A stretch of DNA of 64,000 nucleotides from Clostridia bacterium (GCA_045604905.1 JAZUOX010000060.1:22386-86385), one strand, 5' to 3'. Numbered from the stretch's first letter, positions 7,143-42,600 are shown. Translations and numbers: made by a program. The notes: generated by a model not told the origin, from the sequence alone.

Positions 7143-9998
7143 TCAGTTCTCTCCTTTATTTGCATAATCATAAATGTTTGCAACGAAGCGCTTTGCAACG
7201 GGATTTTCTGTTCTTAATTCTGCAAGACAAATTATGTAAAGCTTACCCTCGTATTCCTTTACTGCACAGGCAAGTGCATCGTCCCAGTTTCCGTTTTCGT
7301 CCTTGTTACCTGTTGTAAGAACGGGTGTAAATCCGTCAGCTGTAAATGTCTTGTACAGAATGGGGGTAATCATATCCTCATCCTCATTATACCAGTAGGA
7401 GAAGTCCTTTTCACGGAATTCTTCCACGATAGGATGACCTGTCTTTCTTGATACGAAATGAAGCGGAAGCATACCGCAGTCCTTAACTTTTACAGTTTCC
7501 CCTGCAATCTGATATTCGCCGGGTTCAAGGTCATCAATGATAACAACATTGTCATTAACTTCAATTTCTACGTCTTCAAATACTTCAATGTCATGAGTTG
7601 TGTAGTTTACAACGCTTCCGTTTTCATCAAGAAGAATTGCCTTAAGAGTGAAGATTTCTCTGTCAACAACCTCGTCAATTGTGAAACGGATATCACTTAT
7701 TGCAGTAACATCACAGTTTTTGATTTCTGCCTGTTTTTCGGAAGTCTTTATAAGCTCATCACCTGCATAAAGCTCGTAACGCATCTTGTAATTATCTGTT
7801 TCAAGGTTTGTGTCGTTACAGATAAATGCTTCAACACTTACCTCTTCACCCTCAAAGTATGTCCATTTATCTGTGCGCAGACTTACCATAATCGGCTCAA
7901 GAGCATTTTTATATGCAAAAAATGCCTTTTTAGGATTTCTGTCACAGTCCATAATGGTCTTCATCCAACCGCTGGGCCATGCATCTATAAACAGATGTAT
8001 CGCAAATGAAATCATACGGCTGTCACGACGGTAGGACTCTGCCATAAGCTTTGTAGCAAGTGCCTGATAGCGCTGGCTATGCTCTACCCAATCTTCAACA
8101 TTATCCTGTGTATCGTAGAAGAATCTGTGAAGGTCTTTAGTCTGTGCACCAACTATTTTGCCAATGTCAAGAGGCTCAACAAGCCACTGTGCAGGATAAT
8201 ACTTTCTCATAACCTCGGTGCACTCAAGTCCTTCCGTACCGAATTCACCGCATCCGTAATACCAGCCGGGTTTAACCTGCATCCAGTGTCCTTTGTAGAG
8301 TTTACCGATGTCGATACCGTGACCGTTATACCATGTGGGATAACAGTGATTATCGGGCATACCCTCCGTAGGCGGATCGTAGTCACCGTCAACGTGTTTA
8401 ATTACACGATCGGGGTTATTAAGACGGACTATATAGTCACATGATGTGAAGAAGTTTTCAAGATCGGGACGCTCTAAATGTCTGTGAGGTTGATTCTTTG
8501 CATTTGGGAAAGGCTCATTAATATAAGTAACAACAACGCAAGAAGCGTGGCTTCTTATAAGCTTCTCCATTTCCTCTGCCTGACGGATACCCTCTGCAAC
8601 CTTGTTTCTTCTCATACAACCGAAAAGCGGAAGGTCTGTCTGAATCATAAGACCGAGCATATCGCAATAATTGTAGAATTCTTCCTGAACGGGACGCTGT
8701 GTAATACGAAGATAATTCATATTACAAAGTTTTGCAAGAAGGATATCGTCGATAAGCTGATCGAAATCACCACGCATAACGTCAAGCTGTTCAAATCCCA
8801 TTGTATTTGCACCGCGGAGACGGGTCTTTTTGCCGTTAAGCATAAACATACCCTTCATATCTTCGTTATCAAGGTCCTGACGGAATTCACGCATACCGAA
8901 TTGACGTGAGCGTGTATCTGTAACTTCACCATTATAAATAAGCTCTACCTGCACCTGATAAAGATAAGGTGTTTTTGGTTCCCAGAGCTTCGCATTTTCC
9001 ATAGGAATTTTGAATTTGTATACGTTATTACCTTTTTCTGCAGGCACTTTAAGGGGTTTACCCATAATATCCTTAACATCTGCCTGAGTAAGGCTGTCGC
9101 CCATACCTGCATAGTAAATTGTTTCAGCTTCAAAAGGCATTTTTTCAAATACTTTTTCTTCGAAGTTCTGACCATATACTGAAATTGTAAAATTAAGGTC
9201 TTTAATTACATACTCTGTATTTTCAACCTCAATCCAAACCTCCGCCTTGTTTTCAAAGGGAAGCGGACGAACAAATACATCACTTATATGAGTTTTGTTT
9301 CTGTATTCAATATAAACATCGTCATAAAGACCCATTCCGGGAGGACAATGATGCCAGCCAATCTGACTGTCGTCCCAGCCGATACCTGTTGCAGCGTACA
9401 GCTTATCACCCTCAAGTCGTTCTCCTGTGCCGCAAAAGTCACAGACTCCGCCATATATAAAATCGTTCTTAAGTACAATCTTAAGGTCGTTTTCACCTAT
9501 ATGTACAAACTCTGTTATATTAAATTCAAAGGGTGCGAAAAATCCCTCATGTCTGCCTGCAAATTCACCGTTAATCATAACAGCCGCTTCGTAGTCGGCA
9601 CCACCGATGCAAATATAGATTTCTTTTCCGGGTGCTTCTTCAATATTGAACTTTGTTTCGTAAACCTGCTTTGCATAGCCTACTGGACCACCGTAATAAG
9701 GGATTGTAATCTTTTCTTTTCCGTCAAGGATAAATTCCTTAATGTCCACCCTCTTATTCATTACAGGAAGCTTGGGTGCAAGATTACGAAGGTAAGGCGC
9801 ATATTCTCCCCTCATTTTCTTAAGCTCTGCACGCATTTCCTCTTGAGTGTCCATTTTCTTTTCTGTTTTTACTGCTTCTCCACCATCCTGAAGCTCACAG
9901 ATTTCAATATCCGTAAATTTGGGAGAAGGCTCATAAAGAAGCTCCGCTCTGCCGCCTATACCTCCGGCTGCAATTTCAATAAACTGGTCGTTAGCCAT
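7143..9998 (-). CDS. GH2-family glycoside hydrolase (beta-galactosidase/beta-glucuronidase/beta-mannosidase superfamily)
   Basis: 951 aa and cytoplasmic. The sugar-binding-domain ending GMGLYDDVYIEYR...ISDVFVRP and the TIM-barrel NEP motif (VVTYINEPF) are typical of GH2. Confidence 0.65.
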   Translation of the reverse strand: MANDQFIEIAAGGIGGRAELLYEPSPKFTDIEICELQDGGEAVKTEKKMDTQEEMRAELKKMRGEYAPYLRNLAPKLPVMNKRVDIKEFILDGKEKITIPYYGGPVGYAKQVYETKFNIEEAPGKEIYICIGGADYEAAVMINGEFAGRHEGFFAPFEFNITEFVHIGENDLKIVLKNDFIYGGVCDFCGTGERLEGDKLYAATGIGWDDSQIGWHHCPPGMGLYDDVYIEYRNKTHISDVFVRPLPFENKAEVWIEVENTEYVIKDLNFTISVYGQNFEEKVFEKMPFEAETIYYAGMGDSLTQADVKDIMGKPLKVPAEKGNNVYKFKIPMENAKLWEPKTPYLYQVQVELIYNGEVTDTRSRQFGMREFRQDLDNEDMKGMFMLNGKKTRLRGANTMGFEQLDVMRGDFDQLIDDILLAKLCNMNYLRITQRPVQEEFYNYCDMLGLMIQTDLPLFGCMRRNKVAEGIRQAEEMEKLIRSHASCVVVTYINEPFPNAKNQPHRHLERPDLENFFTSCDYIVRLNNPDRVIKHVDGDYDPPTEGMPDNHCYPTWYNGHGIDIGKLYKGHWMQVKPGWYYGCGEFGTEGLECTEVMRKYYPAQWLVEPLDIGKIVGAQTKDLHRFFYDTQDNVEDWVEHSQRYQALATKLMAESYRRDSRMISFAIHLFIDAWPSGWMKTIMDCDRNPKKAFFAYKNALEPIMVSLRTDKWTYFEGEEVSVEAFICNDTNLETDNYKMRYELYAGDELIKTSEKQAEIKNCDVTAISDIRFTIDEVVDREIFTLKAILLDENGSVVNYTTHDIEVFEDVEIEVNDNVVIIDDLEPGEYQIAGETVKVKDCGMLPLHFVSRKTGHPIVEEFREKDFSYWYNEDEDMITPILYKTFTADGFTPVLTTGNKDENGNWDDALACAVKEYEGKLYIICLAELRTENPVAKRFVANIYDYANKGEN

Positions 9999-10009
9999 TA
10001 TATTTCACC

Positions 10010-10972
10010 TCATTTATTGTCATAGTCGTAACGCCTTACCTGTCCGAGAATATCGGCAGCTGCAACGTTGTATGAATGATTATCTTTAATTGTAGGGTAC
10101 CACGTTGTCATCATATAACCCAGAAGATTTTCCTTACTTATCTGCTCTTTACAGAACTCAGAAAGAAGAGTGATATTCTCGTAAGCCATCCATATACTGC
10201 CTGTAGGAACCTGCTTATAGCCGTGTTTGTCAAGGAATGAATAATACTTATACGCATCCCACAAAGGATAGCTTGGCGTTCCGGGGAACGAGAAATCTCT
10301 GTCATAGTACCATATACTCTGGAGAACTGATTTGGGCATTTTCTTTACATATTCGTTTTCATCCTGAAGTACCACGTTATCGCTCCACATCCATGCACAG
10401 CTTCCGTTCTTTTCAACCTCGTTAATAAGGAAAAGAACATCGTGCCACCATAGGTCACCGTGTCTTACAACTGCATAGCTGTAAGGCTTCTGATGATGAT
10501 ATGCTTCCTCGTCCATACCGATGTGGAAATAATCAGGTGTGTCAAATATTTCGCAGACTTCTTTTATAAGGTCGGCACAAACTCTGTAATAAATGCTTGT
10601 CGAAACCATTCTTGAATATTCACCCAGCCACTCATCGTGAGTTGTGGCAAAATTCAGTTTTGGAATAGGATTAAGACCGATTGAGCGAAGACGTTTTAAT
10701 TCTTCCTTAAGCTCGTCCACGCTCCAGCTGCCATCGATTGCAAGCTCGGGATGTGTTTCGTACTTAACACCTTCACCAAGGTCAATAATAAGTGTATTTA
10801 CACCTTTTAAAACAAGCTCATTTGTAAGTGCAATCCACTCTTCTTTATCAGTACGCATCTTGTCCTCCGCCTTGTGCATAAGGCCACGTGGTGTTCTGTC
10901 AAGGCCGTAAAGCTTACCGTCTTTGTCTGCCCACATATGTGTACCTAAATGAATTAAATACGACCAAATCAT
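10010..10972 (-). CDS. Uncharacterised GH20-like TIM-barrel family protein, paralog 1 (divergent)
   Basis: 320 aa with no signal peptide. It shares the LNFATTHDEWLGEYSRMVST and FHIGMDEE motifs with the seven other paralogs. Confidence 0.6.
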   Translation of the reverse strand: MIWSYLIHLGTHMWADKDGKLYGLDRTPRGLMHKAEDKMRTDKEEWIALTNELVLKGVNTLIIDLGEGVKYETHPELAIDGSWSVDELKEELKRLRSIGLNPIPKLNFATTHDEWLGEYSRMVSTSIYYRVCADLIKEVCEIFDTPDYFHIGMDEEAYHHQKPYSYAVVRHGDLWWHDVLFLINEVEKNGSCAWMWSDNVVLQDENEYVKKMPKSVLQSIWYYDRDFSFPGTPSYPLWDAYKYYSFLDKHGYKQVPTGSIWMAYENITLLSEFCKEQISKENLLGYMMTTWYPTIKDNHSYNVAAADILGQVRRYDYDNK

Positions 10973-13990: not shown

Positions 13991-14890
13991 TTAATTTAAC
14001 CCAAGAAATTTTTCTGCATTCTTGTAAGAAATTTTATCATAAACTTCCTTAGTTATAAGGCCTTCCGCGAGCCAGTCGTTAAGAAGCGGTATAATAGTTA
14101 CCTCCATTTCAGGCGAAGTGATATCTGTACCAAAAAACATTCTGTCCTGAAATTCAGTTAGGAATTTTGCACCGAACTTCGGATCGCGTCTTAACATATG
14201 TACGGGGGTAAAGTCTGAAAGGTCACCGTAAAGATTCGGGAATTTACGGAATAATTTAGGCACAACGCCCTCCTCTTTTATAGGACCTTCACCCATTTTT
14301 CCGATAAAATTACCTTCAGAATTTACGAAATATCCTCTTTCACTGATTGTTTCAAGCTTTGCAAGCTCCGACCAGAAAAGCGGACCGTGACCGAATACTA
14401 TAAGCTTGGGAAATGACATCAACGTCATTTCAAGCTGCGGAAGACCGGGATCATCATATATGCCAAAGCCCATATCCTTACTCGGTGAGCCGTCAAAAGT
14501 AACAGAAAGACCGGCTTTTTCGGCATAAGCCAGTAAGTTCTGCATTTTCGGGTCCATAAGCTCCATTTTGGGCATAATTTCACCTATGCCTTTACACCCC
14601 ATTGACTTATAATATTCAAGCACTTCGCTGAAATCTGATTTTGGGCAGTTCCAAATCATTCTCGGATCAATATTACAGAAAGGGATTATTCTGTCGGGAT
14701 ATTTTTCCGCCATTTCAAGAACATCTTCGTTTGTCTGCGGAAAGTACACCTCAGGGCTTACGATAGGCATTACAACACCTTTTGCTATTCCCAGTTCGTC
14801 CCATCTTACAATTAACTGCTCCGCACTGCAGAATCTACACACAAATCTTTGCGGAAAACGGTACGCGTGGGCATGCATATCAATAAACAT
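13991..14890 (-). CDS. Amidohydrolase_2 (TIM-barrel metal-dependent hydrolase, lactonase/decarboxylase-type) family protein
   Basis: The N-terminal MFIDMHAHAY (HxH metal ligands) is typical of PF04909-type amidohydrolases. 299 aa, cytoplasmic. Confidence 0.6.
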   Translation of the reverse strand: MFIDMHAHAYRFPQRFVCRFCSAEQLIVRWDELGIAKGVVMPIVSPEVYFPQTNEDVLEMAEKYPDRIIPFCNIDPRMIWNCPKSDFSEVLEYYKSMGCKGIGEIMPKMELMDPKMQNLLAYAEKAGLSVTFDGSPSKDMGFGIYDDPGLPQLEMTLMSFPKLIVFGHGPLFWSELAKLETISERGYFVNSEGNFIGKMGEGPIKEEGVVPKLFRKFPNLYGDLSDFTPVHMLRRDPKFGAKFLTEFQDRMFFGTDITSPEMEVTIIPLLNDWLAEGLITKEVYDKISYKNAEKFLGLN

Positions 14891-14893
14891 ATC

Positions 14894-15694
14894 TTACTTC
14901 CTTTCAAAATAACCTAAAACGTTATAGAACTTACCGCCGGAAAGTGCTTTGTCCTTGATTTTTCTTGCAAATTCACTTTTTGGTTCAATATCGCGGATTT
15001 CCTCACGGTCGGTAAATCCGAACTTAAAGAGAAAGTGGATGATACTGTCCTGCTCACGTTTATGGATTATATTAAACCGTTTCTGAAATTTAATTATATT
15101 GGTATCGTCACCGAGAAATTCCTGTAGATTATCGTCAAGCATCCAAGAAAAGCAGGTATAATACTTATACTCATATTCAGGGAAATGCTTTGTGAAAAAT
15201 TCTTCCGCCAAACTGAAGGCTTCATCAATAACTTCAGGGGTGATTGAGCCACCATCTGCAGGAATATGCACGTCAATTATATTGGTATCTTCTGAAAAGC
15301 CACCGTCTTTTCCCTCGGGATACATTTTTGACATCTGAAACTGCAGTCTGCCAAGTCTGAAAATTTCAAACTTAAGCGAAAGCACTATCCATGCATCTTT
15401 ATCAACCTTGAAATCGCCTTTAACAAGAGTATCGGGAAGATACTTTATTGAGGCATTGAAAATATCCTCGCTGATTCCTCTTTTCTTGTACTGACGGCTC
15501 AGCTCTTCGCAAAAGTAAAGGAACATAACGGAGTTTTTCTCTTTATCTTCTCCGTCGTTTTCAAGATAGGTTTTAATATCACATTCATAAAGTCCGTTTG
15601 TGTTTTCAAGCAGGGCATAAAATCTTTCGTCCGCATTTTGGGGGAAATCAAGCTTTTCGTACCATTTCTTTGCCAGTTCTTTTACTTTTTCCAT
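14894..15694 (-). CDS. Hypothetical protein (267 aa) embedded in the GH105/paralog operon
   Basis: The start is reassigned to MEKVKELAKKWY (ATG 15692-15694), preceded by a GGAAGGA ribosome-binding site and 4 nt after the upstream stop. The longer tracked ORF overlaps paralog 2. No recognisable family. Confidence 0.5.
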   Translation of the reverse strand: MEKVKELAKKWYEKLDFPQNADERFYALLENTNGLYECDIKTYLENDGEDKEKNSVMFLYFCEELSRQYKKRGISEDIFNASIKYLPDTLVKGDFKVDKDAWIVLSLKFEIFRLGRLQFQMSKMYPEGKDGGFSEDTNIIDVHIPADGGSITPEVIDEAFSLAEEFFTKHFPEYEYKYYTCFSWMLDDNLQEFLGDDTNIIKFQKRFNIIHKREQDSIIHFLFKFGFTDREEIRDIEPKSEFARKIKDKALSGGKFYNVLGYFERK

Positions 15695-15698
15695 TGTT

Positions 15699-16652
15699 TC
15701 AATCCTTCCAGTGGTCGTCAACTGCTTTTTTACTATGTACAATCGCTGAAAAGTGAATATACTTGTCAAGCTCTGTTGTGTCACACCAGGGTGCAACGAG
15801 TAATCCCTTAAGATGCTCCGGCGCAATGTTTTCCTTAGAAAATCTTACCTGATGGTCAAAATTGTATTTTGCACTATGATTTGAGCCACAGGGAAGCTGA
15901 TCGTAACCCTCATCACTGAGCTTTCTGTAATTTTCAAGTCTTGCCTTACTCCACGGGTCCTTGGGAAGGGGTGCTGATGCATCCTCGTACATATGGCAGT
16001 AATACCAGGGACTGATAAGAACGTCCTTGGGTACATTTTCAATAAATTCGTCATAGTGAGTCCACGACCAGTCTGCCCATATCCAGGGGCGTGAGCCGTT
16101 CTCACGAACGCAGTCAAAATAAAAATTAAGGTCTTGCCAGATAAGTTCAAACTGACGGTATGCCGCAAAAGTGAGCTTCTGCTGATTAAGACCGTTTTCT
16201 TCATCAAGGCCGAGATGGAAAAGCTCGGGCGTTTCGAAAATTTCACAAACTTCTTTTATAAGGTCTTTTACAACCTCATAGTATTTTGGTGTAGAAAGCA
16301 TTCTTGAATATACGCCTAGCCAGGCATCGTGACCTGCCGAGAAGTTCAGCTTCGGGAATACTTTTAGTCCCATTTTTTTAAGACGCTTAACCTCGTCATT
16401 CATAAACTCAGGAGTCCACGCACCCTCAACCGCAATTTCGGGATGTGATTTATAGAGAATACCGTCACCAACGTCTACAAGAATAGAGTTAAAACCGTGA
16501 GCTACGGCAAAATCAATGATTTCGTCCCACGCCTTTTTTTCTGTATTAAGTTTAAGGGAAAATCTTGCACCTGTGCAGGCAGGTCTTGTAGCTGAATCCT
16601 CCCACATATTGTCGCTGAGGTATAACATTAAGCATAAAAGTTTATCTTTCAT
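15699..16652 (-). CDS. Uncharacterised GH20-like TIM-barrel family protein, paralog 2 (group B)
   Basis: 317 aa. Motifs LSDNMWED, LNFSAGHDAWLGVYSRM and FHLGLDEENG. Cytoplasmic. Confidence 0.6.
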   Translation of the reverse strand: MKDKLLCLMLYLSDNMWEDSATRPACTGARFSLKLNTEKKAWDEIIDFAVAHGFNSILVDVGDGILYKSHPEIAVEGAWTPEFMNDEVKRLKKMGLKVFPKLNFSAGHDAWLGVYSRMLSTPKYYEVVKDLIKEVCEIFETPELFHLGLDEENGLNQQKLTFAAYRQFELIWQDLNFYFDCVRENGSRPWIWADWSWTHYDEFIENVPKDVLISPWYYCHMYEDASAPLPKDPWSKARLENYRKLSDEGYDQLPCGSNHSAKYNFDHQVRFSKENIAPEHLKGLLVAPWCDTTELDKYIHFSAIVHSKKAVDDHWKD

Positions 16653-16671
16653 TTTTAAAAACTCCTTTATA

Positions 16672-17628
16672 TTAATCTAAAAACTTACTTTTAACCTCGG
16701 CAACGTGTTCAAGTGCCGCAAAATATCTGTATTTGTGTCTTTCGGTAGTGCTTCTTCCTGAAGTAATCATAAAGCCACTTACCTTATCCCATACGGCGTT
16801 ATCCTTTGTAAATCTGACATTATGCTCAAAGGAAAAAGGCGTGAACGAATCATTTGCACCGCAGGGGATAATTTCATAACCTGCTTCCGAAAGCTTTTTA
16901 TAGCTGTCACGCATATTAACGTGATCAGTAGCATCAATAAGAGGAGCCTGAGGGTCAGAATACATATGATTGTGGTAATAAGGACTTACAAGAACGTCTT
17001 TTCCGATGTTATTCTCAAAGCGTTCAAAATCCTTTGCCGCAATATGTCCCCATATCCATGGACGTACACCCTTATCTCTTACACACTGAAGCATAAAGTT
17101 AAGATCCTCCATAAGAAGGTCAAACTGTCTGTAGCAAGCATATGTAAGATTTCTCTGGCTTTCCTCATCCTCGTTATTCATACCAAGGTGGAAAAGCTCG
17201 GGATTTTCAAATATATCACATACCTCATAAATAAGGTCTTTCACCACATCGTGATAGTCGGGCGTGCCGAGCATTCTTCCATATACGCCAAGCCACGCAT
17301 CGTGCGCCGCAGAGAAGTTAAGCATAGGAACTACCTTGAATCCCATTTTCTTGAGGCGTCTTACTTCCTCTGTCATATATTCGGGAGTCCAGCCGCCTTC
17401 TTCAAGCCAAAGTTCGGGATGTGACTTATAGTTAATACCGTCGGCAAGGTCAATTACAAGGGTAGTTATCCCCTTTTCCTTTGCTCCGTCAACTATCTGG
17501 TCCCAAGCCGCCTTTTCTGTAATCATTTTTGTATTGAAAACCTCACCTTTAAAGTTTGGTTTAGTTTTAGAGTCGTTTCCTGTATTATCGCCAAGGGTTA
17601 TAATTAAGCATAAATCTTTATTATACAT
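16672..17628 (-). CDS. Uncharacterised GH20-like TIM-barrel family protein, paralog 3 (group B, DE->NN variant)
   Basis: 318 aa and roughly 70% identical to paralog 7. The H-x-G motif reads HLGMNNEDEE, so the Asp/Glu positions are replaced. Confidence 0.6.
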   Translation of the reverse strand: MYNKDLCLIITLGDNTGNDSKTKPNFKGEVFNTKMITEKAAWDQIVDGAKEKGITTLVIDLADGINYKSHPELWLEEGGWTPEYMTEEVRRLKKMGFKVVPMLNFSAAHDAWLGVYGRMLGTPDYHDVVKDLIYEVCDIFENPELFHLGMNNEDEESQRNLTYACYRQFDLLMEDLNFMLQCVRDKGVRPWIWGHIAAKDFERFENNIGKDVLVSPYYHNHMYSDPQAPLIDATDHVNMRDSYKKLSEAGYEIIPCGANDSFTPFSFEHNVRFTKDNAVWDKVSGFMITSGRSTTERHKYRYFAALEHVAEVKSKFLD

Positions 17629-17630
17629 AC

Positions 17631-18590
17631 TTATTTTCCTCCAAAGAATTGTTCTCTTGTGTAACTTGCCTGATAGATTGCATCAAAATAGTAGTACTTG
17701 GATGAACCATTAACAGGCGACCAACAACCGGTGATTGCCATACCTATAATTTTATCAAGAACGGCATTTTCGGTTGCATATCTTACATTATGTTCAAAGT
17801 TAAACGTACTTTCGTTAGAACCGCCCTGAAGCCATAGGTCGTAGCCCGCTTCCGTCAGCTCCTTAAAAGCTTCAAGACGCTTTGTACTCCACGGGTCTGT
17901 AAGCTTCGGACGAGCGGCATCAAAGTAAAGATTGTTATAAAACCAGTTACTTATAATAACGTCACGGGGGACATTTGCTAAAAATTCCTCGGGAAAGCTC
18001 CAGAAATAGTCCGCATCGATGTTCGGCCTTACGCCCTTTTGTCGGATGCAGTCGCACAGATAATTTATATCGTGCCATTGAAGATCCCTCTGTCTGTAGC
18101 AGGCATACTGCACTCTTCCCTGATTAAGTCCATTTTCTTCGTCCATTTCAATAGCCATCATTTCAGGAGTATTAAAGAGGTCGCAAACCTCAAAAATCAG
18201 GTCACGGACAACTTCATAATATTTCGGCGTTGACACCATACGGGAATAAATCCCGAGCCATACATCGTGACCTGCCGAGAAGTTAAGGCGCGGATAAGCC
18301 TTAAGTCCTTTGGAATAAATATACGAAAGTTCTTCTTTAAGTTCATCCGTTGTCCATGCACCTTCAATTGCAATTTCGGGATGAGATTCATAGCGGATGC
18401 CATTTGCAAGGTTTATGTAAAGGCTGTCGATTCCGTTTTCCGCTGCCATATCAACAACCTCTCTCCACGCTTTTTTCTCTGTCAGAAGTTTTGTGTTAAA
18501 AAGCTCACCCGTACACCACGCCTCTGTATCAGAATCATTCCAACAGTTACCTGCAAGATATAAAATAAGACACCAGTTGTCATTTATCAT
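17631..18590 (-). CDS. Uncharacterised GH20-like TIM-barrel family protein, paralog 4 (group A)
   Basis: 319 aa. Motifs LAGNCWNDS, LNFSAGHDVWLGIYSRMVST and IEMDEENGLNQ. It ends in GGK. A 2-nt spacer separates it from the next gene. Confidence 0.6.
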   Translation of the reverse strand: MINDNWCLILYLAGNCWNDSDTEAWCTGELFNTKLLTEKKAWREVVDMAAENGIDSLYINLANGIRYESHPEIAIEGAWTTDELKEELSYIYSKGLKAYPRLNFSAGHDVWLGIYSRMVSTPKYYEVVRDLIFEVCDLFNTPEMMAIEMDEENGLNQGRVQYACYRQRDLQWHDINYLCDCIRQKGVRPNIDADYFWSFPEEFLANVPRDVIISNWFYNNLYFDAARPKLTDPWSTKRLEAFKELTEAGYDLWLQGGSNESTFNFEHNVRYATENAVLDKIIGMAITGCWSPVNGSSKYYYFDAIYQASYTREQFFGGK

Positions 18591-18591
18591 A

Positions 18592-19548
18592 TTATTTTCC
18601 TCCGTTCATTTTATCAATAGAATACCTTGCCTGATTGATTGCATCAAGATTGTAGTTCACGGTTTCAGGCACAGGAGATTCCCAGCTGCCGCAAATCTGA
18701 AGTCCGAGGATTTTACTTTCGTCAAGAGTTTCCTTTGCAAGCTTTATTAACTGCTCAAAATTAAAGCTGTTTATTCCTGCACCGCAGAGGAATATATCAT
18801 AACCCGCCTCTGTAAGTGCTTTAAAGCTTTTAAGCCTGTTATCGCTCCAGTAATCAGCAGGTCTGGGGTGTGCATCGTCAAAAAAGAGTGTGTCATAATA
18901 CCAGTTGGTAAGTGCAACATCCCTGGGTACATTTTGAAGAAATTCCTCGGGATGTGACCAGTAGTAATCGGCACACATACTGGGTCTTACTCCCTTTTCA
19001 CGGATGCAGTCACAAAGATAGTTTACATCGTGCCAGATTAATTCACCCTGACGGTAGCATACATACTGCAATCTTCCCTGATTAAGTCCGTTTTCCTCGT
19101 CATATTCAAGGCTGAAAAATTCAGGAGTATCGAAAATGTCAATAATCTCATGAATTAAATCCTTTGCAACCTCGTAATACTTCTTTGTTGAAACCATTCT
19201 TGAATATTCACCGAGCCACGCATCGTGTGCCGCTGAAAAATTAAGCATAGGATACGGAGTAAGACCAATACTTCTTAAATAGTCAAGCTCACTTTTAAGT
19301 AAGTCAACCTCCCACGCATTTTTTACCGCTATTTCAGGATGTGATTTATACTTTATACCGTTTGAAAGGTTTATAAATATACTGTCACATCCGTTTTTTG
19401 CCGCATGGTCTACTGTTTTTCGCCAACATTCATAATCAAGACGCATTTCGGGTCTGAATACGTTACCGTTACACCAGGGGACATCTACAGAGTCGTTCCA
19501 GCAGTTTTCGGCAATCCATACCATCATAGAAAGTCTGTTAATACCCAT
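18592..19548 (-). CDS. Uncharacterised GH20-like TIM-barrel family protein, paralog 5 (group A)
   Basis: 318 aa. Motifs IAENCWNDS and LEYDEENGLNQ. It ends in GGK. A 1-nt spacer separates it from paralog 4. Confidence 0.6.
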   Translation of the reverse strand: MGINRLSMMVWIAENCWNDSVDVPWCNGNVFRPEMRLDYECWRKTVDHAAKNGCDSIFINLSNGIKYKSHPEIAVKNAWEVDLLKSELDYLRSIGLTPYPMLNFSAAHDAWLGEYSRMVSTKKYYEVAKDLIHEIIDIFDTPEFFSLEYDEENGLNQGRLQYVCYRQGELIWHDVNYLCDCIREKGVRPSMCADYYWSHPEEFLQNVPRDVALTNWYYDTLFFDDAHPRPADYWSDNRLKSFKALTEAGYDIFLCGAGINSFNFEQLIKLAKETLDESKILGLQICGSWESPVPETVNYNLDAINQARYSIDKMNGGK

Positions 19549-20508
19549 TTAATTGACCTCTTTCATTTTATCCCACGAATATTTCCACTGATAGATTGCA
19601 TCAAGGTAATAGTACTTATTTTCCTCCATAGGTGCTTCCCAGCTGCCGCACATCAAAACACCGTTTATCTTATTTTCATCAAGCTTTTCACGGGCAAAAC
19701 GGATTGTCTGCTCCGCATTATAGTTGTTTTCGTTTGAAGCGGGCTGGAGCATAATATCAAAGCCTGCATTTGTAAGTGCCTCGAATGCACCGAGGCGGTT
19801 AAGCGACCAGGGATGTGTAGGCTTCGGATGTGCTTCATCAAAATAAAGAAGTCCGTAATGCCATGGGCATACAAGCACATCTTTAGGTACATTTGCGATA
19901 AATTCTTCGGGATAAGACCAATAGTAGTCAGCACCTATACAGGGGCGTACTCCCTTTTCGCGGACACAGTCGCAAAGGTAATTAACATCGTGCCAGATAA
20001 GGTCAAACTGACGGTAGCAGGCATAACGAAGCCTGCCCTGATTAAGTCCGTTTTCTTCATCAAGAACAAGTGACATAATTTCGGGAGTATCAAAGATATC
20101 GCAAACCTCGTGAATCAGTTCTTTTGCAACCTCGTAATACTTCTGTGTTGAAACCATTCTTGAATATTCACAAAGCCACACATCGTGCCCTGCGGAGAAG
20201 TTAAGACGGGGGTAAAATTTAAGCCCTTTTTCCTTGTAACGCCTTACTTCTTCTTGCATAAATTCGGGAGTCCAAGCACCCTCCACTGCAATTTCGGGAT
20301 GTGATTTATACTTAATTCCGTTTGCAAGGTCAATAATTACGCTGTCAAAGCCACACTGGAGTGCCTTGTCGCATATTTCACGGAATGTATTTACGTCTGC
20401 ACGAAGGACAGGCTGATACAAAACGCCTGTACACCACGGAATTTCTGCAGAATCATTCCAGCAGTTATCTGCAAGACATATAAGTAAACAGGTTCTGTCT
20501 GTAATCAT
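19549..20508 (-). CDS. Uncharacterised GH20-like TIM-barrel family protein, paralog 6 (group A)
   Basis: 319 aa. Motifs LADNCWNDS and LVLDEENGLNQ. Its stop abuts the start of paralog 5 with no spacer. Its start is 2 nt after the GH105 stop. Confidence 0.6.
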   Translation of the reverse strand: MITDRTCLLICLADNCWNDSAEIPWCTGVLYQPVLRADVNTFREICDKALQCGFDSVIIDLANGIKYKSHPEIAVEGAWTPEFMQEEVRRYKEKGLKFYPRLNFSAGHDVWLCEYSRMVSTQKYYEVAKELIHEVCDIFDTPEIMSLVLDEENGLNQGRLRYACYRQFDLIWHDVNYLCDCVREKGVRPCIGADYYWSYPEEFIANVPKDVLVCPWHYGLLYFDEAHPKPTHPWSLNRLGAFEALTNAGFDIMLQPASNENNYNAEQTIRFAREKLDENKINGVLMCGSWEAPMEENKYYYLDAIYQWKYSWDKMKEVN

Positions 20509-20510
20509 TT

Positions 20511-22598
20511 TTATTCTCCTAACATATTCATAACGGCTACACCTGCACCAAGAACTATACCTACGCCGTGGTCGTCATTTGTGATTGTACCAAGATCAAG
20601 GTAGTATTTTTCTTCCTTATTACAGCCTGAACCCTGACATACACCGTAAACGTTACCTTCACTGTCAACGCATTTTTCACAAAGGGCGTTCCACGCTTCA
20701 ACAACAGTGTCTTTGATATTTTCATCAAGCCAACCAAACTTTACGCCACGCGCAAGTGCAGTAATAAACATTGCACTGCCGCTTGTTTCAACATAACTGT
20801 CGTGATTGTTTATAACCTGATGCCAGATACCTTCATTTTTGTCACGACACTTAAGAACACCGCCTGCAAAATTGCGGAATATTTCCAGAATTCTTTCTCT
20901 GTCCTTATGACTTTCAGGCATAAGCATAAGAAGCTCACTCATAGCAAGGAGCACCCAACCGTTACCTCTGCCCCAGGGAACTCTGTTTGCAAATTCTTCC
21001 GGTGGGAAGAAAATGTGTGAGTATATGTTCTGATCGTGCATATACATTCTTTCCCAAAATCCGAAAATCTGTCTTGCAGCTTCGTCAAAATACTTTTCTT
21101 CGCTGAATATTGCACCAAGACGTGCAAGGAACGGAAGACACATATACATATCGTCTGTCCACATTGTCTTTCCGCGGTGGAATGTACCGTCGGGGAATCT
21201 TGGAACATTGGTCATCATTCTGTCAGCCATCAGTTCTATAAGACGTTTCGCATTATTGTCTCCTGATATAAGATAGTATTCGCAAAGAGTTATACCGAAT
21301 GTTCCGATAGAATCAAGGTTATTGAAGTTGGCAGATGAAGAAAGATATGATGAATATCCCGACACTCTATTATCGTGTGCTGCGTAATCACGGTGCTTTG
21401 AGATAGTCTTTCCGAAAGATATGTAGTAATCGTAAAAATCTCTAATATCAAGTTTTGCTGCAGTCTGCCTCATACCTTCTATACCTACCATAATGGCATA
21501 GAACCACTGTCCCCAGAAGCTTGTTTCAACGTTCTGGCGAAGATAGGTGCCCTTACGGTAGAAATTCCAGTAGCAGGTTTTTCCGCAGGCTGAAGGCATA
21601 GGCTCTGCAAAATCAAGCTTCATTTCAGGAACATAGGGGTAGCTGAAGGGATCTGTTTCTCTTCCGAAAGGTCCCGTCCATATCCACTGAAGGTCGGGAC
21701 AGGTATCACCTGTTACAAATGAAAGCTGCGATTCGCCGCCGGCAGTTGCGGTAAATCCCCATTCTTCTCCTTTTGCGCTCTTTATAAGAAGGTGTGTAAA
21801 ATCTTTAAATTCAGCCTCATACTTCCCTTTTTCTTCCGATGTGTAAAGGGTCTTTCCTTCGCTCATTATCTTGATAGGTGACTTATGCTCGATAACAAGC
21901 TTACCCTTATATTCTGTATATACATAAGCGGCTTTACCATCATTTTCACAAAGCGAGGCAAAGTCAAACTCTTTTACATTTGACTGCTCCGGCTTTACCG
22001 GGAAAACCCAGTCGATATTTTCAAATGTAGGCTCAAAAACTTCGTCCTTTTTATAAAGACGTGAATGTCTGATTACTGACTGCCCTTCAAAGCCGTCGTC
22101 ATCGATATACATTCTTGTGCAATAAACGTAGCTTCCTGCACCCATACGAAGTCCGGGAATGAGGATACGAATGGCACCTTCAAAACCATCTTCGTCCGCT
22201 ACGAGCTTTACTACAATACGGTTTTTACCCTTTTTGAAAAGGATATCCGCATCAACTGCAGGAATATTTCTGAAATCTCCTTTGTGAGTGGGAATTTTTT
22301 CACCGTTAAAGTACACTTCTGCATTTTTATTCTTAGCTATATTAATTATAAGCTCTCTATCATATGGACCGTCTGCATCAACGCTGATAAAAGCGTAGTC
22401 ACCTACCTCGTAAGAGGGAAAAATCTCGCTGAAATCAGGTCCCGCCTTATGAATAATATCCATTTCCTTGTAATAAGGGAACGGATGGTAATAAACCTCA
22501 CTCTTTCCTCTTGTTTCAAGCATATGATCATAGATTTTCCTTAAGACTTCTGCATTTGTAGACGCAACAGTTCTGATGGATTTCTCGCAGTATTTCAT
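20511..22598 (-). CDS. GH105-type unsaturated rhamnogalacturonyl/galacturonyl hydrolase with a ~330-aa N-terminal extension
   Basis: The C-terminal ~360 aa carry the WGRGNGW motif and (alpha/alpha)6-type signatures of the GH105/GH88 YteR family. There is no signal peptide. A GGAGG ribosome-binding site is present. Confidence 0.7.
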   Translation of the reverse strand: MKYCEKSIRTVASTNAEVLRKIYDHMLETRGKSEVYYHPFPYYKEMDIIHKAGPDFSEIFPSYEVGDYAFISVDADGPYDRELIINIAKNKNAEVYFNGEKIPTHKGDFRNIPAVDADILFKKGKNRIVVKLVADEDGFEGAIRILIPGLRMGAGSYVYCTRMYIDDDGFEGQSVIRHSRLYKKDEVFEPTFENIDWVFPVKPEQSNVKEFDFASLCENDGKAAYVYTEYKGKLVIEHKSPIKIMSEGKTLYTSEEKGKYEAEFKDFTHLLIKSAKGEEWGFTATAGGESQLSFVTGDTCPDLQWIWTGPFGRETDPFSYPYVPEMKLDFAEPMPSACGKTCYWNFYRKGTYLRQNVETSFWGQWFYAIMVGIEGMRQTAAKLDIRDFYDYYISFGKTISKHRDYAAHDNRVSGYSSYLSSSANFNNLDSIGTFGITLCEYYLISGDNNAKRLIELMADRMMTNVPRFPDGTFHRGKTMWTDDMYMCLPFLARLGAIFSEEKYFDEAARQIFGFWERMYMHDQNIYSHIFFPPEEFANRVPWGRGNGWVLLAMSELLMLMPESHKDRERILEIFRNFAGGVLKCRDKNEGIWHQVINNHDSYVETSGSAMFITALARGVKFGWLDENIKDTVVEAWNALCEKCVDSEGNVYGVCQGSGCNKEEKYYLDLGTITNDDHGVGIVLGAGVAVMNMLGE

Positions 22599-38693: not shown

Positions 38694-38739
38694 CAAAAAA
38701 AATGCACATTTGAGTATAAGTCTCAAATGTGCATTTTTT
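38694..38739. terminator. Bidirectional intrinsic terminator between the regulator (+) and the dppA-like gene (-)
   Basis: Perfect 18-bp inverted repeat aaaaaatgcacatttgag / ctcaaatgtgcatttttt with a 7-nt loop. It is flanked by an A-run upstream and a T-run downstream. Confidence 0.7.
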
Positions 38740-39538: not shown

Positions 39539-39614
39539 AATAAACAATCCTTTCAAAATAAATTTATATTGCAAAAAGTCCACTGTTGTGTTACTATTCT
39601 CATAGGGTGATTTT

Positions 39615-40596: not shown

Positions 40597-42600
40597 TCAT
40601 CTGTTTGCGGTGATTTTATAGTACAGAGTTTTAAGTTGTGATCTTGTAAGTGCATCCTTTAACTGAGTATCAGGCTCATAGTCAAGATAAACTATACCAT
40701 AAGTGTATTCGCTCATACGCTCCGCAAGCGAGGAAATTTCAGAATACAGTTTTTCTTCATCATCACGTTTTTCATAAAGACAGTTGTAATAATCAAGGCA
40801 AAGCACCATCATCCTGAAAACATCAACACCGTACAAAACTCCGCGGATATCTTCGTTGATTTTTGAAAGCAGTGCCTCTCCCTCTGGCTTTTTTCTCATA
40901 TCCCGAGGGTTAAGGGCAGTGCTTTCGTCAGTAAAAAGTTCGGGAGAAAGAGATGCTGTTTCTTCCGTTCTTATTTTCCGAAGTTCCCTCAAAGCTTTTT
41001 CAAGCTTTTTTACAGTTTCATAACCGCTTGCTACGGCATTTTCTCCCAGGTGGGATTCGTTATAAAAAGGCTTTGCGGGGATTTTTCCGTCCCACTCGGA
41101 AAGGTGTGTGAGAATACTTGTGTCAAACCAGTTACGCCATGATCCGCAATAGCTCACGGCATCCTCGATAAGTCGGTAAGCCTCTTTTGCACGATCTGCA
41201 TATTTTCCGTACATATCGTCAAAATACTTTCCGATAAGCTTGTCAGTATCACAGTTTCTGTCACGGCTGATATTTGCAAGCACATACTGATTAAGACTTC
41301 TCACTCCCCAGTCGAGGACGGGGGTGTGCATATACTCAATTTCCGTCACACCGCAGTCTATGTAATACTTAACGTCGTTTATTATCCTCTCCGTGAAAAG
41401 AAGCGGCAAATCCTCATACTTTGAAACGTTATAATACTCATTCATCGCAAGCATCATGCCCGTTTTTGTCCAGTCATTGAGAGTACGTTTATATATTCTG
41501 TTTTTGTCGCAAGTATCGTCACTTAAATCGTGGTGGTAGCATCTTAAAATCGGGCAAAAAAGCGGATAATCTCCCGCTTTTATAAGATTTTCGGGAACGG
41601 GATTCTCAGGTGCTTCAAGGGTATCTGTACCCTCATAAGCATCGAATGAAAGTCTTATATTATGGTCAATAATACCATCACGATACGCCTGGTCAATTCT
41701 TTTTCTTATATGTGAAAGATAATGCAGAGTTCTGTCAGTTCCGTTTCCGAGGGCACTGCATTTTTCACAATTACAACTTGCCCCCCAGGTATCAAAGCCT
41801 GCAAGTTCAAACACCGATTGGTCTTTCCAGTCGGTCTTTATTTTATCAATGACAGTTTCCGCAAGCTTGTCAAGTAATCCTTCATTGGTAACACAGAACT
41901 GAACGTTAATGGCATTTTTCTCATTTATTTCGCCTTCACGCTTGCCGTACCAGTCTTTGTGCACGTCAATATAATATCCGCCGTTCTCATCAACGTTTTT
42001 CGGATTAAGAATTTTTGTAAAAACGTGGCCACCTGTTTTAAGAGTGAAGCACAGCTTCTGCTGAAGTTTTTTCGTATTCGGAAAACAAGCGTGTATGTTC
42101 ATCCGATTTCTCGCCATCCATACGGTCAGGCCTATTGATTCTTTGAGAAGTCCTTCAAAATGAAATCCTCTGCCGTCAGGCATATCGTATTTATAATTTT
42201 TAGATTTGAAAGTTGCAAGTTCTTTAAGTTCAGGTACAAATTCCTCCGTAGGGGAATACCAGCGAATTCCCTGCATTTCAAGGAATTCATACACTGCATA
42301 AAGTAGTCCTTTCCTCGAATTGCCTTCCAGAACAGTGTCACTGCCGTCAGTGTATATTCTGAATTCTTCTCCGTCTTTGTCAAGACACTTGAGAATAATG
42401 TTTCTCTCACCTTTTTCGTGAGATACAGAAGTCTTAAGTCCGCATTTATTAAGATAAACACAAAGTTCCTCTGCCGCATAAGAAACCGTACATCTTACGG
42501 CAGATTCCTTGTCGTTTTCAAAATCAATTTTATTTTCATCATGTGCCCAAAGTTCATAATATTTTTCCGCATCGGGATATGGAAGCACTATTGTCAACAA
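40597..42600 (-). CDS. DUF4838-like putative glycoside hydrolase (GH67N/GH20b-type N-domain + TIM barrel), specificity unknown
   Basis: 667 aa with no signal peptide. The N-terminal RKGLLYAVYEFLEMQGIRW motif is typical of DUF4838/alpha-glucuronidase-N-like domains. It shares architecture with the 3848-5977 gene. Confidence 0.5.
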   Translation of the reverse strand: MLTIVLPYPDAEKYYELWAHDENKIDFENDKESAVRCTVSYAAEELCVYLNKCGLKTSVSHEKGERNIILKCLDKDGEEFRIYTDGSDTVLEGNSRKGLLYAVYEFLEMQGIRWYSPTEEFVPELKELATFKSKNYKYDMPDGRGFHFEGLLKESIGLTVWMARNRMNIHACFPNTKKLQQKLCFTLKTGGHVFTKILNPKNVDENGGYYIDVHKDWYGKREGEINEKNAINVQFCVTNEGLLDKLAETVIDKIKTDWKDQSVFELAGFDTWGASCNCEKCSALGNGTDRTLHYLSHIRKRIDQAYRDGIIDHNIRLSFDAYEGTDTLEAPENPVPENLIKAGDYPLFCPILRCYHHDLSDDTCDKNRIYKRTLNDWTKTGMMLAMNEYYNVSKYEDLPLLFTERIINDVKYYIDCGVTEIEYMHTPVLDWGVRSLNQYVLANISRDRNCDTDKLIGKYFDDMYGKYADRAKEAYRLIEDAVSYCGSWRNWFDTSILTHLSEWDGKIPAKPFYNESHLGENAVASGYETVKKLEKALRELRKIRTEETASLSPELFTDESTALNPRDMRKKPEGEALLSKINEDIRGVLYGVDVFRMMVLCLDYYNCLYEKRDDEEKLYSEISSLAERMSEYTYGIVYLDYEPDTQLKDALTRSQLKTLYYKITANR

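Follow-up and report, generated by a model that had tools for sequence, protein, structure and literature searches.

An eight-copy gene family in a gut Clostridia bacterium is a remote branch of GH20 with predicted N-acetylhexosaminidase-type and variant members

In an uncultured gut Clostridia bacterium, one locus contains eight copies of a gene whose relatives have no public names other than 'hypothetical' or 'Tat pathway signal protein', which raises the question of what kind of protein has been multiplied here, and on what it acts. A first-pass annotation of the window (the whole 64,000-nucleotide stretch analysed, GCA_045604905.1 JAZUOX010000060.1:22386-86385) had proposed a wholly new glycosidase family in a uronide-utilisation locus, with each paralog taking a different linkage of RG-I/RG-II or glucuronoxylan-derived oligosaccharides.

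Organisation of the eight paralogs

All eight open reading frames were confirmed on the minus strand at the coordinates listed below; they encode proteins of 316-320 aa with pairwise identities of 31-66%. The starts assigned to P7 and P8 are internal ATGs within longer mechanical ORFs. Each copy scores 398-490 bits against the family HMM (P2 highest at 490 bits; P5 at 437 bits), and a search of the whole window with this model gave no match beyond the eight, even at E<=10. Copies that keep the full GH20 catalytic signature (P1, P2, P4, P5, P6 and P8; 6/8) are termed canonical.

P1, 10010..10972, minus strand: canonical, separate older clade, next to the GH2 gene; 320 aa
P2, 15699..16652, minus strand: canonical, complete HxGxDE motif (FHLGLDEE); 317 aa
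P3, 16672..17628, minus strand: active-site variant, N-N-E, Y-x-H, beta8 Trp to Gly
P4, 17631..18590, minus strand: canonical, group A, upstream partner of variant P3; 319 aa
P5, 18592..19548, minus strand: canonical, group A; 318 aa
P6, 19549..20508, minus strand: canonical, group A, first gene after GH105
P7, 42629..43579, minus strand: active-site variant, N-E-E, W-x-F, beta8 Trp to Gly; 316 aa
P8, 43581..44543, minus strand: canonical, group A, upstream partner of variant P7; 320 aa
GH105-type unsaturated uronyl hydrolase, 20511..22598, minus strand: heads the six-gene array; N-terminal extension of ~350 aa
GNAT_C acyltransferase-like gene, 14894..15694, minus strand: 4 nt downstream of P2; Pfam GNAT_C E 2.4e-36
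DUF4838 protein (domain of GH163/GH185), 40597..42600, minus strand: directly downstream of P8-P7; Pfam DUF4838 E 3.1e-16
GH2 of beta-glucuronidase/galacturonidase type, 7143..9998, minus strand: directly downstream of P1; Pfam GH2 domains

The six-gene head-to-tail array, in which P6 to P2 follow the GH105-type gene, has the spacers first reported (GH105/P6 2 nt, P6/P5 0, P5/P4 1, P4/P3 2, P3/P2 19), while P7 lies 1 nt downstream of P8. A GGAG-type Shine-Dalgarno site is found 5-10 nt upstream of every copy, and promoter- or terminator-like sites show no excess within the tandem array. The proposal that the copies are co-operonic with GH105 is supported. A promoter-like site is present in the P1 region at 11035-11007. 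The assignment of the leading gene to GH105 is likewise sound (Pfam Glyco_hydro_88 E 2.4e-63 over residues 359-692; PDB sequence matches 3k11, 4wu0, YteR and 4ce7), and its product has no signal peptide. The paralogs had also been annotated as lacking signal peptides; indeed, there is no space for one in any copy because barrel strand beta1 begins at residue 5-6 of the models.

A neighbour-joining tree separates {P4,P5,P6,P8} from {P2,(P3,P7)}, with P1 apart in a multi-phylum canonical clade. The two subgroups described earlier thus hold in outline, but a C-terminal GGK does not define the first of them, given that P6 does not end in GGK; where present, these residues are the next cistron's Shine-Dalgarno sequence (GGAGGAAAATAA) read as codons. 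All paralogs, the variants P3 and P7 included, are under purifying selection. Compared with orthologs of three other species-level genomes, every paralog has a dN/dS of 0.006-0.12, with the strongest constraint of the eight on P1 (0.006-0.03). P5 gives 0.10, P4 0.07 against locus L003 (its nucleotide sequence is 100% identical to that of the copy in L001), and P8 and P7 give 0.04 and 0.07 against L004.

Kinship with GH20

The family is phylogenetically wide but small and unannotated. None of the eight copies passes the threshold of a Pfam or NCBIfam model, NCBIfam giving nothing at all, in line with the family's original description as unassigned. The copy closest to Pfam PF00728 (Glyco_hydro_20) is P2, which at 20.6 bits (E 3.3e-4) falls short of the cutoff of 22.3; P7 has a sub-threshold match (E 4.4e-3) and the other six copies have none. 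Sub-threshold GH20 matches also occur in 18 of 119 relatives (E 2e-4 to 1e-2), making GH20 the most frequent family among them.

More sensitive comparisons support the cytoplasmic GH20-like TIM barrel that had been proposed. A profile built from the eight copies matches TrdeGH20 (9FYM/9FYL, E 1.8e-7) and Niako3494 (8BAL, E 6.6e-7), and hhalign against a canonical GH20 returns a probability of 89.9% (E 1.7e-6), pairing HIGMDE of GH20 with HLGmDEE of the family and WgY with WYY. AF2 models, with pLDDT values of 94.6 and 95.0, show a barrel structurally closest to GH20 enzymes, despite an identity to solved GH20s of just 10-21%. The family is therefore a remote, unannotated branch of GH20, nearest to the single-domain TrdeGH20/Niako3494 group, rather than a new kind of enzyme unrelated to known families; CAZy might place it inside GH20 or, as with GH163 and GH185, beside it as a sister family.

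Each protein is a single (beta/alpha)8 barrel, and Pfam detects no N-terminal GH20b domain in the eight copies; this domain, widespread in GH20 but missing from several of its subgroups, is also absent from TrdeGH20, Niako3494, DspB and GcnA, and its absence is therefore no bar to GH20 membership. One relative, P0255, does carry it (28.2 bits, cutoff 26.1). TrdeGH20 and Niako3494 belong to group 'GH20:19.1', share 15-21% identity with the family and act, as a group, on LacNAc, LNB or 6S-GlcNAc. They possess a cysteine cluster whose CxxxC...CxxC region aligns to non-Cys positions in the family. The latter differs further in an additional invariant Glu (D-E-E), in the invariants H70-P-E72, D109, Y115, R166 and D174, and in being mostly cytoplasmic and arranged in tandem arrays and canonical/variant pairs.

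High-ranking Foldseek matches were also obtained with GH20C of S. pneumoniae and GcnA of S. gordonii (E 1.5e-10, TM 0.65), themselves intracellular exo-beta-HexNAc-ases without an N-terminal GH20b domain. Unlike the family, these are ~620 aa proteins with a C-terminal helical domain that pass the Pfam GH20 model. In locus L086 a Glyco_H_20C_C GH20 has a gene of its own next to a family pair, and the family is therefore not simply a GH20C replacement.

GH163 (BT1035) and GH185 (Sp_0475) are distant GH20 homologues, given families of their own by CAZy as their similarity was too low; both are substrate-assisted, and members of the GH185 cluster are cytoplasmic proteins with small oligosaccharides as substrates (PMC10570127). 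The catalytic residues of GH185 are reported not to match those of GH20 (PMC10570127), whereas the family keeps the GH20 Asp-Glu pair. The GH163/GH185 domain DUF4838 (PF16126) has no match in the eight copies at E<=1, and hhalign finds no similarity between the family and the DUF4838 protein adjoining P7/P8 (probability 0.05%). DUF4838 genes occur again near relatives in L081 and L090.

Catalytic residues of the canonical copies

The motifs quoted in the first-pass annotation are present in the sequences, and the H.G.DE motif aligns, as had been suggested, with the HxGxDE catalytic motif of GH20. In the canonical copies the catalytic set would comprise Asn103/His108 after beta3, Asp150-Glu151 after beta4, Trp216-x-Tyr218 after beta6 and Trp290 after beta8. 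On the basis of the HMMER alignment and the numbering of PMC11776370, Asp150-Glu151 corresponds to TrdeGH20 Asp188-Glu189, Trp216/Tyr218 to Trp273/Tyr275, Asn103/His108 to Asn117/His121 and Trp290 to Trp329 (Trp342 in Niako3494). This alignment-based mapping, from which the active-site geometry is also predicted, places the oxazolinium-stabilising Tyr and the subsite -1 Trp in all six canonical copies; P3 and P7 lack Tyr218 and Trp290, and have N-N and N-E in place of the Asp-Glu pair. The 104 canonical members of the loci analysed, the six window copies included, all have D150, E151, E152, Y218, N103 and H108; 102 of them have W216 and 103 have W290, and the full signature is present in 188 of about 243 representatives.

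Differences among the paralogs occur around this set. The motif His and Gly are lost in group A, and the beta5 Trp (Trp232), kept in P1, P2 and also the variants P3 and P7, is replaced by Asp in P4, Cys in P5 and Gly in P6 and P8. Such pocket differences suggest different sugars or linkages.

Within the D-E-E triplet it is the third position, E152, that is invariant, and not E151, the GH20 acid/base position; a GH18/GH85-like D-x-E register is therefore possible. The Tyr placement after beta6 is likewise GH18-like (PMC11776370).

Variant copies

In the variants, D150, W216, Y218 and W290 are lost together, along with E151 in most, while all other invariants are kept. The idea that each paralog serves a different linkage is undermined for P3 and P7, the two of the eight in which the residues of the catalytic signature have been lost jointly. 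Variants elsewhere, in other Clostridia, read E-D-E or D-D-E. P3 and P7 form a distinct class: they are partner subunits without catalytic function, or else enzymes whose mechanism or substrate has changed.

Non-catalytic subunits would form heteromers with the upstream canonical copy, aiding substrate binding or stability, such that the canonical/variant pair is the functional unit. This would account for the joint loss of active-site residues from proteins otherwise intact, for the confident GH20-type barrel modelled for P3, for the purifying selection on variants (dN/dS 0.07-0.11), and for their position, as each of the 14 variants directly follows a canonical copy, from overlapping it to a gap of 24 nt, and none occurs alone. 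In the tree the variants fall into two separate clades, each with a canonical sister clade, which suggests that the pair arrangement arose twice. Catalytically dead paralogs have a precedent in the GH18 chi-lectins. However, adjacency is equally expected of tandem duplicates with sequential enzymatic roles. Furthermore, N-N-E and N-E-E can be read as the N-x-E of GH85, where Asn replaces Asp, and D-D-E retains D-x-E (PMC10570127); the variants may therefore still be catalytic. On balance we regard the non-catalytic role, for P3, P7 and the E-D-E/D-D-E variants alike, as a serious but somewhat doubtful option.

Genomic context and predicted substrates

We consider it probable, from the conserved residues and neighbouring genes, that the canonical copies are glycosidases of the beta-HexNAc type that work in the cytoplasm by substrate assistance and cleave hexosamine-uronate oligosaccharides, with P3 and P7 as a distinct class. 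The six would be retaining beta-N-acetylhexosaminidase-type enzymes, exo-acting or disaccharide-releasing. Secreted lyase-like proteins would cut the polymer, GH105 would remove the unsaturated uronate, and the canonical copies would then trim imported oligosaccharides, in concert with the UxuA pathway and the GUS-type GH2. The product of the GNAT_C gene downstream of P2, similar to the glucosamine N-acyltransferases Dbv8 and Orf11* (E 1e-16 to 1e-18 in matches to the PDB sequences of Dbv8 and Orf11*/tcp24), may N-acetylate free glucosamine, enabling cleavage.

Both uronate and hexosamine genes accompany the family. Related loci repeatedly pair it with UxuA/UxaC uronate catabolism, PL8 and PL22-like lyases and GH88/105, and many also hold GH20, GH109, NagA/NagB-like, PIG-L or glucosamine N-acyltransferase-like GNAT_C genes. 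Examples include L086 (PL8, GH20, M55, GlcNAc 2-epimerase, Glucosamine_iso, UxuA), L087 (PL8), L088 (NagA-like, GH88/105, GH109-like, GNAT_C, GH2), L089 (NagA-like, GH20, GH88) and L093/L094 (M55, a canonical and a variant copy, GH20, Glucosamine_iso); GNAT_C recurs in L083, L084 and L088. The window itself contains GH105, GNAT_C, GH2, CE15, UxuA, DUF4838 and M55 genes, with no canonical HexNAc catabolic gene and no transporter gene in the cluster; its clearest partners (GH105, CE15, UxuA and the GUS-like GH2, which among PDB sequences is nearest to GUS-type enzymes and to AqGalA, a GH2 beta-galacturonidase) point to uronates. Beyond Clostridia the gene neighbourhoods vary, and among 123 ORFs no partner predominates.

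This context could also indicate that the GH20 fold was kept and its chemistry changed, so that the enzymes cleave non-acetamido sugars as uronidases or glycosidases of another type; glucuronate, for instance, could be set free from oligosaccharides of aldouronic, AGP-type or pectic origin. This is essentially the new activity first envisaged for the locus. The tightest recurrent neighbours, UxuA, UxaC and an SDR, belong to glucuronate catabolism and are joined by the CE15 glucuronoyl esterase and GH105. Locus L081 (UxaC, UxuA, DUF4838, GH39 genes, CE15), where three family genes lie between UxuA and a GH67N+DUF4838 protein and a hexosamine gene is absent, looks glucuronoxylan-type on account of its GH39, CE15 and UxaC. 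R166 and R117, both invariant, are candidates for carboxylate binding, and E152, also invariant, does not occupy the GH20 acid/base position. Against this, Asp150 and Tyr218, invariant in 104/104 canonical members, orient and stabilise the 2-acetamido group in relatives, a GUS-type GH2 is already available for the uronidase step, hexosamine genes recur in many related loci, and all characterised relatives of the same fold and motif (GH20, GH163, GH185) are substrate-assisted on HexNAc (PMC11776370, PMC10570127). A change of chemistry therefore appears unlikely. The RG-I/RG-II or glucuronoxylan oligosaccharides first proposed, and pectin or xylan in general, are also unlikely substrates because the conserved residues belong to acetamido-assisted catalysis, for which a 2-acetamido sugar is required, and because of the hexosamine genes in related loci.

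It is highly improbable that the family is a sugar isomerase/epimerase, amidohydrolase or esterase: a weak AP_endonuc_2 match in one of 119 members, frequent AP_endonuc_2 and UxuA barrel neighbours, and many invariant His/Asp/Glu that might bind metal are set against the finding that xylose-isomerase-like and amidohydrolase barrels are not its closest structural or profile neighbours. The first-pass annotation had itself named such a barrel class, or a displaced D/E pair, as decisive against a glycosidase; the best structural matches include no non-glycosidase class of TIM barrel, and the pair aligns to the GH20 Asp-Glu.

Implications

With the canonical copies probably hexosaminidase-type enzymes, a further, distinctly speculative and improbable extension concerns the canonical/variant pairs (P4-P3, P8-P7 and the E-D-E/D-D-E pairs), which might form a two-component machine of one fold that dismantles alternating hexosamine-uronate oligosaccharides in the cytoplasm. 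If so, GNAT_C would re-acetylate free glucosamine before cleavage, and the canonical subunit would cut the HexNAc bond via acetamido assistance. The variant, devoid of exactly the acetamido-handling residues, would use other catalysis on a non-acetamido sugar (e.g. uronate) or be an obligatory non-catalytic partner. An acetylate-then-cleave step is known from lysosomal heparan sulfate breakdown, of which this would be a bacterial counterpart. As a remote GH20 branch with canonical and variant members, the family is a good candidate for biochemical characterisation.

Organisation of the paralogue arrays

An ORF listing bore out the eight paralogous genes of the first-pass annotation, all of them on the minus strand.

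Paralogues P1–P8 in the window (ORF listing).
10010-10972, minus strand: P1
15699-16652, minus strand: P2
16672-17628, minus strand: P3
17631-18590, minus strand: P4
18592-19548, minus strand: P5
19549-20508, minus strand: P6
42629-43579, minus strand: P7
43581-44543, minus strand: P8

A full-length alignment of the proteins has 40 invariant columns, and pairwise identities are 31-66%. A family HMM scores each of P1–P8 at 398-490 bits and finds no further match in the window. The spacers between the array genes match the lengths first reported exactly, and the gene ahead of P6 is indeed a GH105-type hydrolase, as indicated by its Pfam domain and PDB sequence matches. A GGAG-type Shine-Dalgarno sequence is located 5-10 nt 5' of each start codon. 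The 'GGK' C-termini, initially described as a subgroup feature, are present, but correspond to GGAGGAAAATAA, which places the ribosome-binding site of the next cistron within the last codons. The common 'GGK*' 3' end (GGAGGAAAATAA / GGAGGTAAATAA) occurs in P4 (17631-17645), P5 (18592-18606) and P8 (43581-43595). As these codons double as the Shine-Dalgarno of the next gene, the arrangement suggests that translation is coupled from gene to gene in the array. A promoter and terminator scan revealed no excess over shuffled sequence, with no internal signal standing out in the array. The gap of 103 nt preceding P1 contains a near-consensus sigma-70-like site (TTGACG, 17 nt, TATAAT; 11035-11007, minus strand), so that P1, together with GH2, CE15 and UxuA downstream of it, may be under a promoter of its own.

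Downstream of P2, a GNAT_C acyltransferase-like gene follows after 4 nt, and then an Amidohydro_2 gene (13991-14890). The region from ~1186 to 37067 runs in one direction throughout and is carbohydrate-related. P7 and P8 belong to another small cluster, which also encodes a DUF4838 protein, an AraC regulator and an M55 peptidase, and housekeeping sequence is found beyond ~44.7 kb. Base composition is uniform across the window (~0.40 GC), with no sign of a recent foreign origin of the locus.

A remote GH20-type family

Pfam and NCBIfam scans of P1–P8 returned no family above threshold; sub-threshold Pfam Glyco_hydro_20 matches were obtained for P2 and P7 only. However, searching the PDB sequence set with an eight-copy profile identified the single-domain GH20 enzymes TrdeGH20 (9FYM/9FYL, E 1.8e-7) and Niako3494 (8BAL, E 6.6e-7). 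Sub-threshold GH20 matches occur in 18 of 119 relatives, among which GH20 is the family most often matched, and one relative (P0255) carries a GH20b N-terminal domain above threshold. Comparison by hhalign with a canonical two-domain GH20 encoded beside a relative gave a probability of 89.9%, pairing HIGMDE with HLGmDEE and W-g-Y with W-Y-Y. AlphaFold models of P6 (pLDDT 94.6) and P3 (pLDDT 95.0) are both confident eight-stranded barrels. The top 50 Foldseek matches are GH20 only. A non-glycosidase TIM barrel, the outcome that the first-pass annotation had named as refuting its proposal, was thus rejected, as no isomerase or amidohydrolase class appears among the top matches. The proposal of a wholly new glycosidase family is not supported either, since profile, hhalign and Foldseek evidence all place P1–P8 beside GH20.

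Among characterised enzymes, those of the single-domain TrdeGH20/Niako3494 group come closest, with LacNAc-ase, LNB-ase and 6S-GlcNAc-ase activities. Architecture and catalytic layout are common to both, whereas sequence identity is just 15-21%, the cysteine cluster of TrdeGH20 and Niako3494 is absent, and the P1–P8 family has its own invariant residue set and, unlike these enzymes, falls below the Pfam GH20 threshold. There is CAZy precedent for splitting off distant GH20 homologues, in the form of GH163 and GH185 (PMC10570127). Membership of either was rejected, given the lack of similarity to DUF4838: hhalign found no relationship between the family and the DUF4838 protein of the window, and the Pfam scan of P1–P8 no DUF4838 match. 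Public names of relatives are restricted to 'hypothetical protein' or 'Tat pathway signal protein', and we found nothing on this family in the literature on the 8BAL hexosaminidase and GH20-like proteins. P1–P8 belong to a genuine, remote GH20-type family that is unannotated and unusual in its tandem expansion; its fold and probable mechanism are already familiar.

Conservation of the predicted catalytic residues

Family residues (P6 numbering) were mapped by HMMER alignment using the numbering of the TrdeGH20 paper (PMC11776370), and the assignments are alignment-based.

Family residues and their TrdeGH20 counterparts (roles from PMC11776370).
D150-E151: Asp188-Glu189, catalytic pair
W216-x-Y218: Trp273 / Tyr275, Tyr stabilises the oxazolinium
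N103 / H108: Asn117 / His121, subsite -2
beta5 Trp: Trp232, subsite -1
W290: Trp329 (Niako Trp342), subsite -1

The location of the oxazolinium-stabilising Tyr after beta6 is a feature of the TrdeGH20/Niako3494 subgroup (PMC11776370). Among 104 canonical members in the fetched loci, H70, E72, N103, H108, D109, W111, Y115, D150, E151, E152, R166, D174, D194 and Y218 are invariant, with W216 present in 102 and W290 in 103. The D-E-E, W-x-Y and beta8 Trp signature is complete in 188 of ~243 full-length representatives, and in P1, P2, P4, P5, P6 and P8 of the window. In group A, the beta5 Trp is replaced (D/C/G/G in P4/P5/P6/P8), plausibly reflecting a change in specificity. The third residue of the D-E-E triplet alone is invariant across every sequence, variants included, and a GH18/GH85-like D-x-E register is therefore a possible alternative to the D150-E151 assignment.

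A recurrent variant class

The remaining copies depart from the signature, with an N-N-E triplet in P3 and N-E-E in P7. D150, Y218 and W290 are changed together in both, while every other family-invariant residue is kept; W216 is changed in P3 and kept in P7. Related Clostridia genomes encode 12 more variants (six E-D-E, two D-D-E and four N-x-E, the latter being orthologues of P3 and P7). In a neighbour-joining tree, the variants fall into two separate clades, each with a canonical clade as its sister. All 14 variants are encoded directly downstream of a canonical copy, the two genes overlapping by up to 4 nt or lying up to 24 nt apart, and the canonical-then-variant order is also seen in L093/L094.

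Every paralogue, variants included, is under purifying selection when compared with orthologues from three other genomes (dN/dS 0.006-0.12). The exception is P3 against a near-identical copy in the related locus L001, where a dN/dS of 0.36 derives from very few substitutions. With dN/dS well below 1 throughout, pseudogene status was rejected for any copy, and the variants are therefore functional, either as partner subunits or as enzymes with altered chemistry. The recurrent pairing with a catalytically stripped partner paralogue is a concrete, testable oddity.

Distribution and evolution

A genome scan identified at least 585 relatives, which come from many phyla and are mostly single-copy, and an exhaustive profile search of 1.84 billion representatives yielded 351, 854 and 1847 clusters at E<=1e-30, 1e-10 and 1e-3, respectively. 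Besides Clostridia, the family occurs in PVC phyla, Armatimonadota, Chloroflexota, Bacteroidota and Actinomycetota, and extends as far as Bathyarchaeia. Most members have no N-terminal extension, with Sec- or Tat-type signals in a minority. Only a small set of uncultured Clostridia/Oscillospiraceae MAGs, apparently from herbivore and other gut samples, shows the tandem expansion; in one lineage, apparently of the herbivore gut, 8-9 copies have accumulated within a ~45-kb locus that encodes several large secreted proteins as well.

Locus L001 (92-94% nucleotide identity to the window) contains seven tandem copies but no Amidohydro_2 gene; the seventh copy (14794-15774) shares 81% amino acid identity with P2. 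L002 and L003 have three- and four-copy arrays, respectively, each with a separate P1 orthologue, while L083 and L084 lack both Amidohydro_2 and a 966-aa secreted protein. The locus has a modular make-up, with a copy number that is still changing. P1 belongs to an older multi-phylum clade in the neighbour-joining tree, the other seven copies forming a lineage-specific clade. P4 (17631-18590) is 100% identical in nucleotide sequence to L001 11919-12878 (MAG JAZQAO010000054), while the paralogues flanking it have diverged from L001 (dS 0.17-0.43; P3 0.04), suggesting that strains have recently exchanged this segment by recombination or transfer.

Genomic context and proposed role

Neighbours outside Clostridia are heterogeneous. 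A census of 123 ORFs in these loci revealed no dominant partner (URO-D, DAO, AP_endonuc_2 and GFO_IDH_MocA have 3-4 matches each), although this result is weak, as crude ORF calling failed in high-GC loci. Some distant relatives are fused to a GH110-like alpha-galactosidase module, CE7 acetyl esterases or an FAD oxidoreductase (P0128, P0231/P0202, P0142). In loci of the Clostridia type, recurrent neighbours are genes of uronate catabolism (UxuA, UxaC, SDR), lyases (PL8 or PL22-like domains in giant secreted proteins), GH88/105, CE15, DUF4838 and Peptidase_M55. Notably, hexosamine enzymes recur near the family as well, namely canonical GH20, a GH109-like protein, a NagA-like amidohydrolase, Glucosamine_iso, GlcNAc 2-epimerase and PIG-L deacetylases. 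Genes for Peptidase_M55, a D-aminopeptidase family, adjoin family pairs in the window (38738-39583), L086 (2804-3595), L091 (6157-6939) and L093 (889-1671), and often come first in an operon ordered M55, canonical, variant, GH20.

The GH2 beside P1 is closest to beta-glucuronidases and a beta-galacturonidase among PDB sequences. The GNAT_C protein directly after the array (14894-15694, minus strand; also in L083, L084 and L088) resembles Dbv8 and Orf11*, glucosamine N-acyltransferases from glycopeptide antibiotic pathways that N-acylate a glucosamine residue. Its role may be to add an N-acetyl group to free hexosamine of the substrate.

Five large secreted proteins with little or no annotation are encoded on the minus strand (22728-28025, 32521-35427, 28040-30763, 35442-37067 and 11076-13976), and an SLH-anchored protein at 30783-32519. 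PL22-like oligogalacturonate-lyase propellers are matched in two of them (1765 aa, 22728-28025; 968 aa, 32521-35427), and aBig_2 domains occur in the 1765-aa and 966-aa proteins. The large secreted proteins are candidate novel extracellular lyases that would define the substrate. A 709-aa cytoplasmic protein (3848-5977, minus strand) has only a sub-threshold GH20b-like N-domain match, with no match in a PDB sequence search and no relationship to the family by hhalign. As Pfam-less ~700-aa proteins also occur beside the family in L083, L086 and L088, the pathway may include this protein as a further uncharacterised enzyme.

The main rival to a hexosamine-directed function is a uronide-directed role, in line with the CE15/GH39/UxaC locus L081. 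The pectic or glucuronoxylan substrates initially proposed fit poorly, as neither contains acetamido sugars. Conservation of the acetamido-handling residues, together with the hexosamine/uronate gene context, argues instead for a pathway in which a glycan with both uronate and hexosamine would first be cleaved by lyase-like enzymes outside the cell, and the resulting oligosaccharides would be imported. GH105 would then take off the unsaturated uronate, the GH20-like paralogues remove or release HexNAc-containing units, and GH2 take off saturated uronate, with UxuA and partners catabolising the uronate.

GH163 and GH185, with similarly weak links to GH20, have recently provided new specificities and useful glyco-engineering enzymes. 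The P1–P8 family escapes Pfam, NCBIfam and public annotation alike. Its characterisation would correct carbohydrate-active enzyme counts for such genomes, and could reveal a new GH20 subfamily or sister family, the use of catalytically stripped paralogues, and which hexosamine-uronate glycan feeds these uncultured Clostridia.
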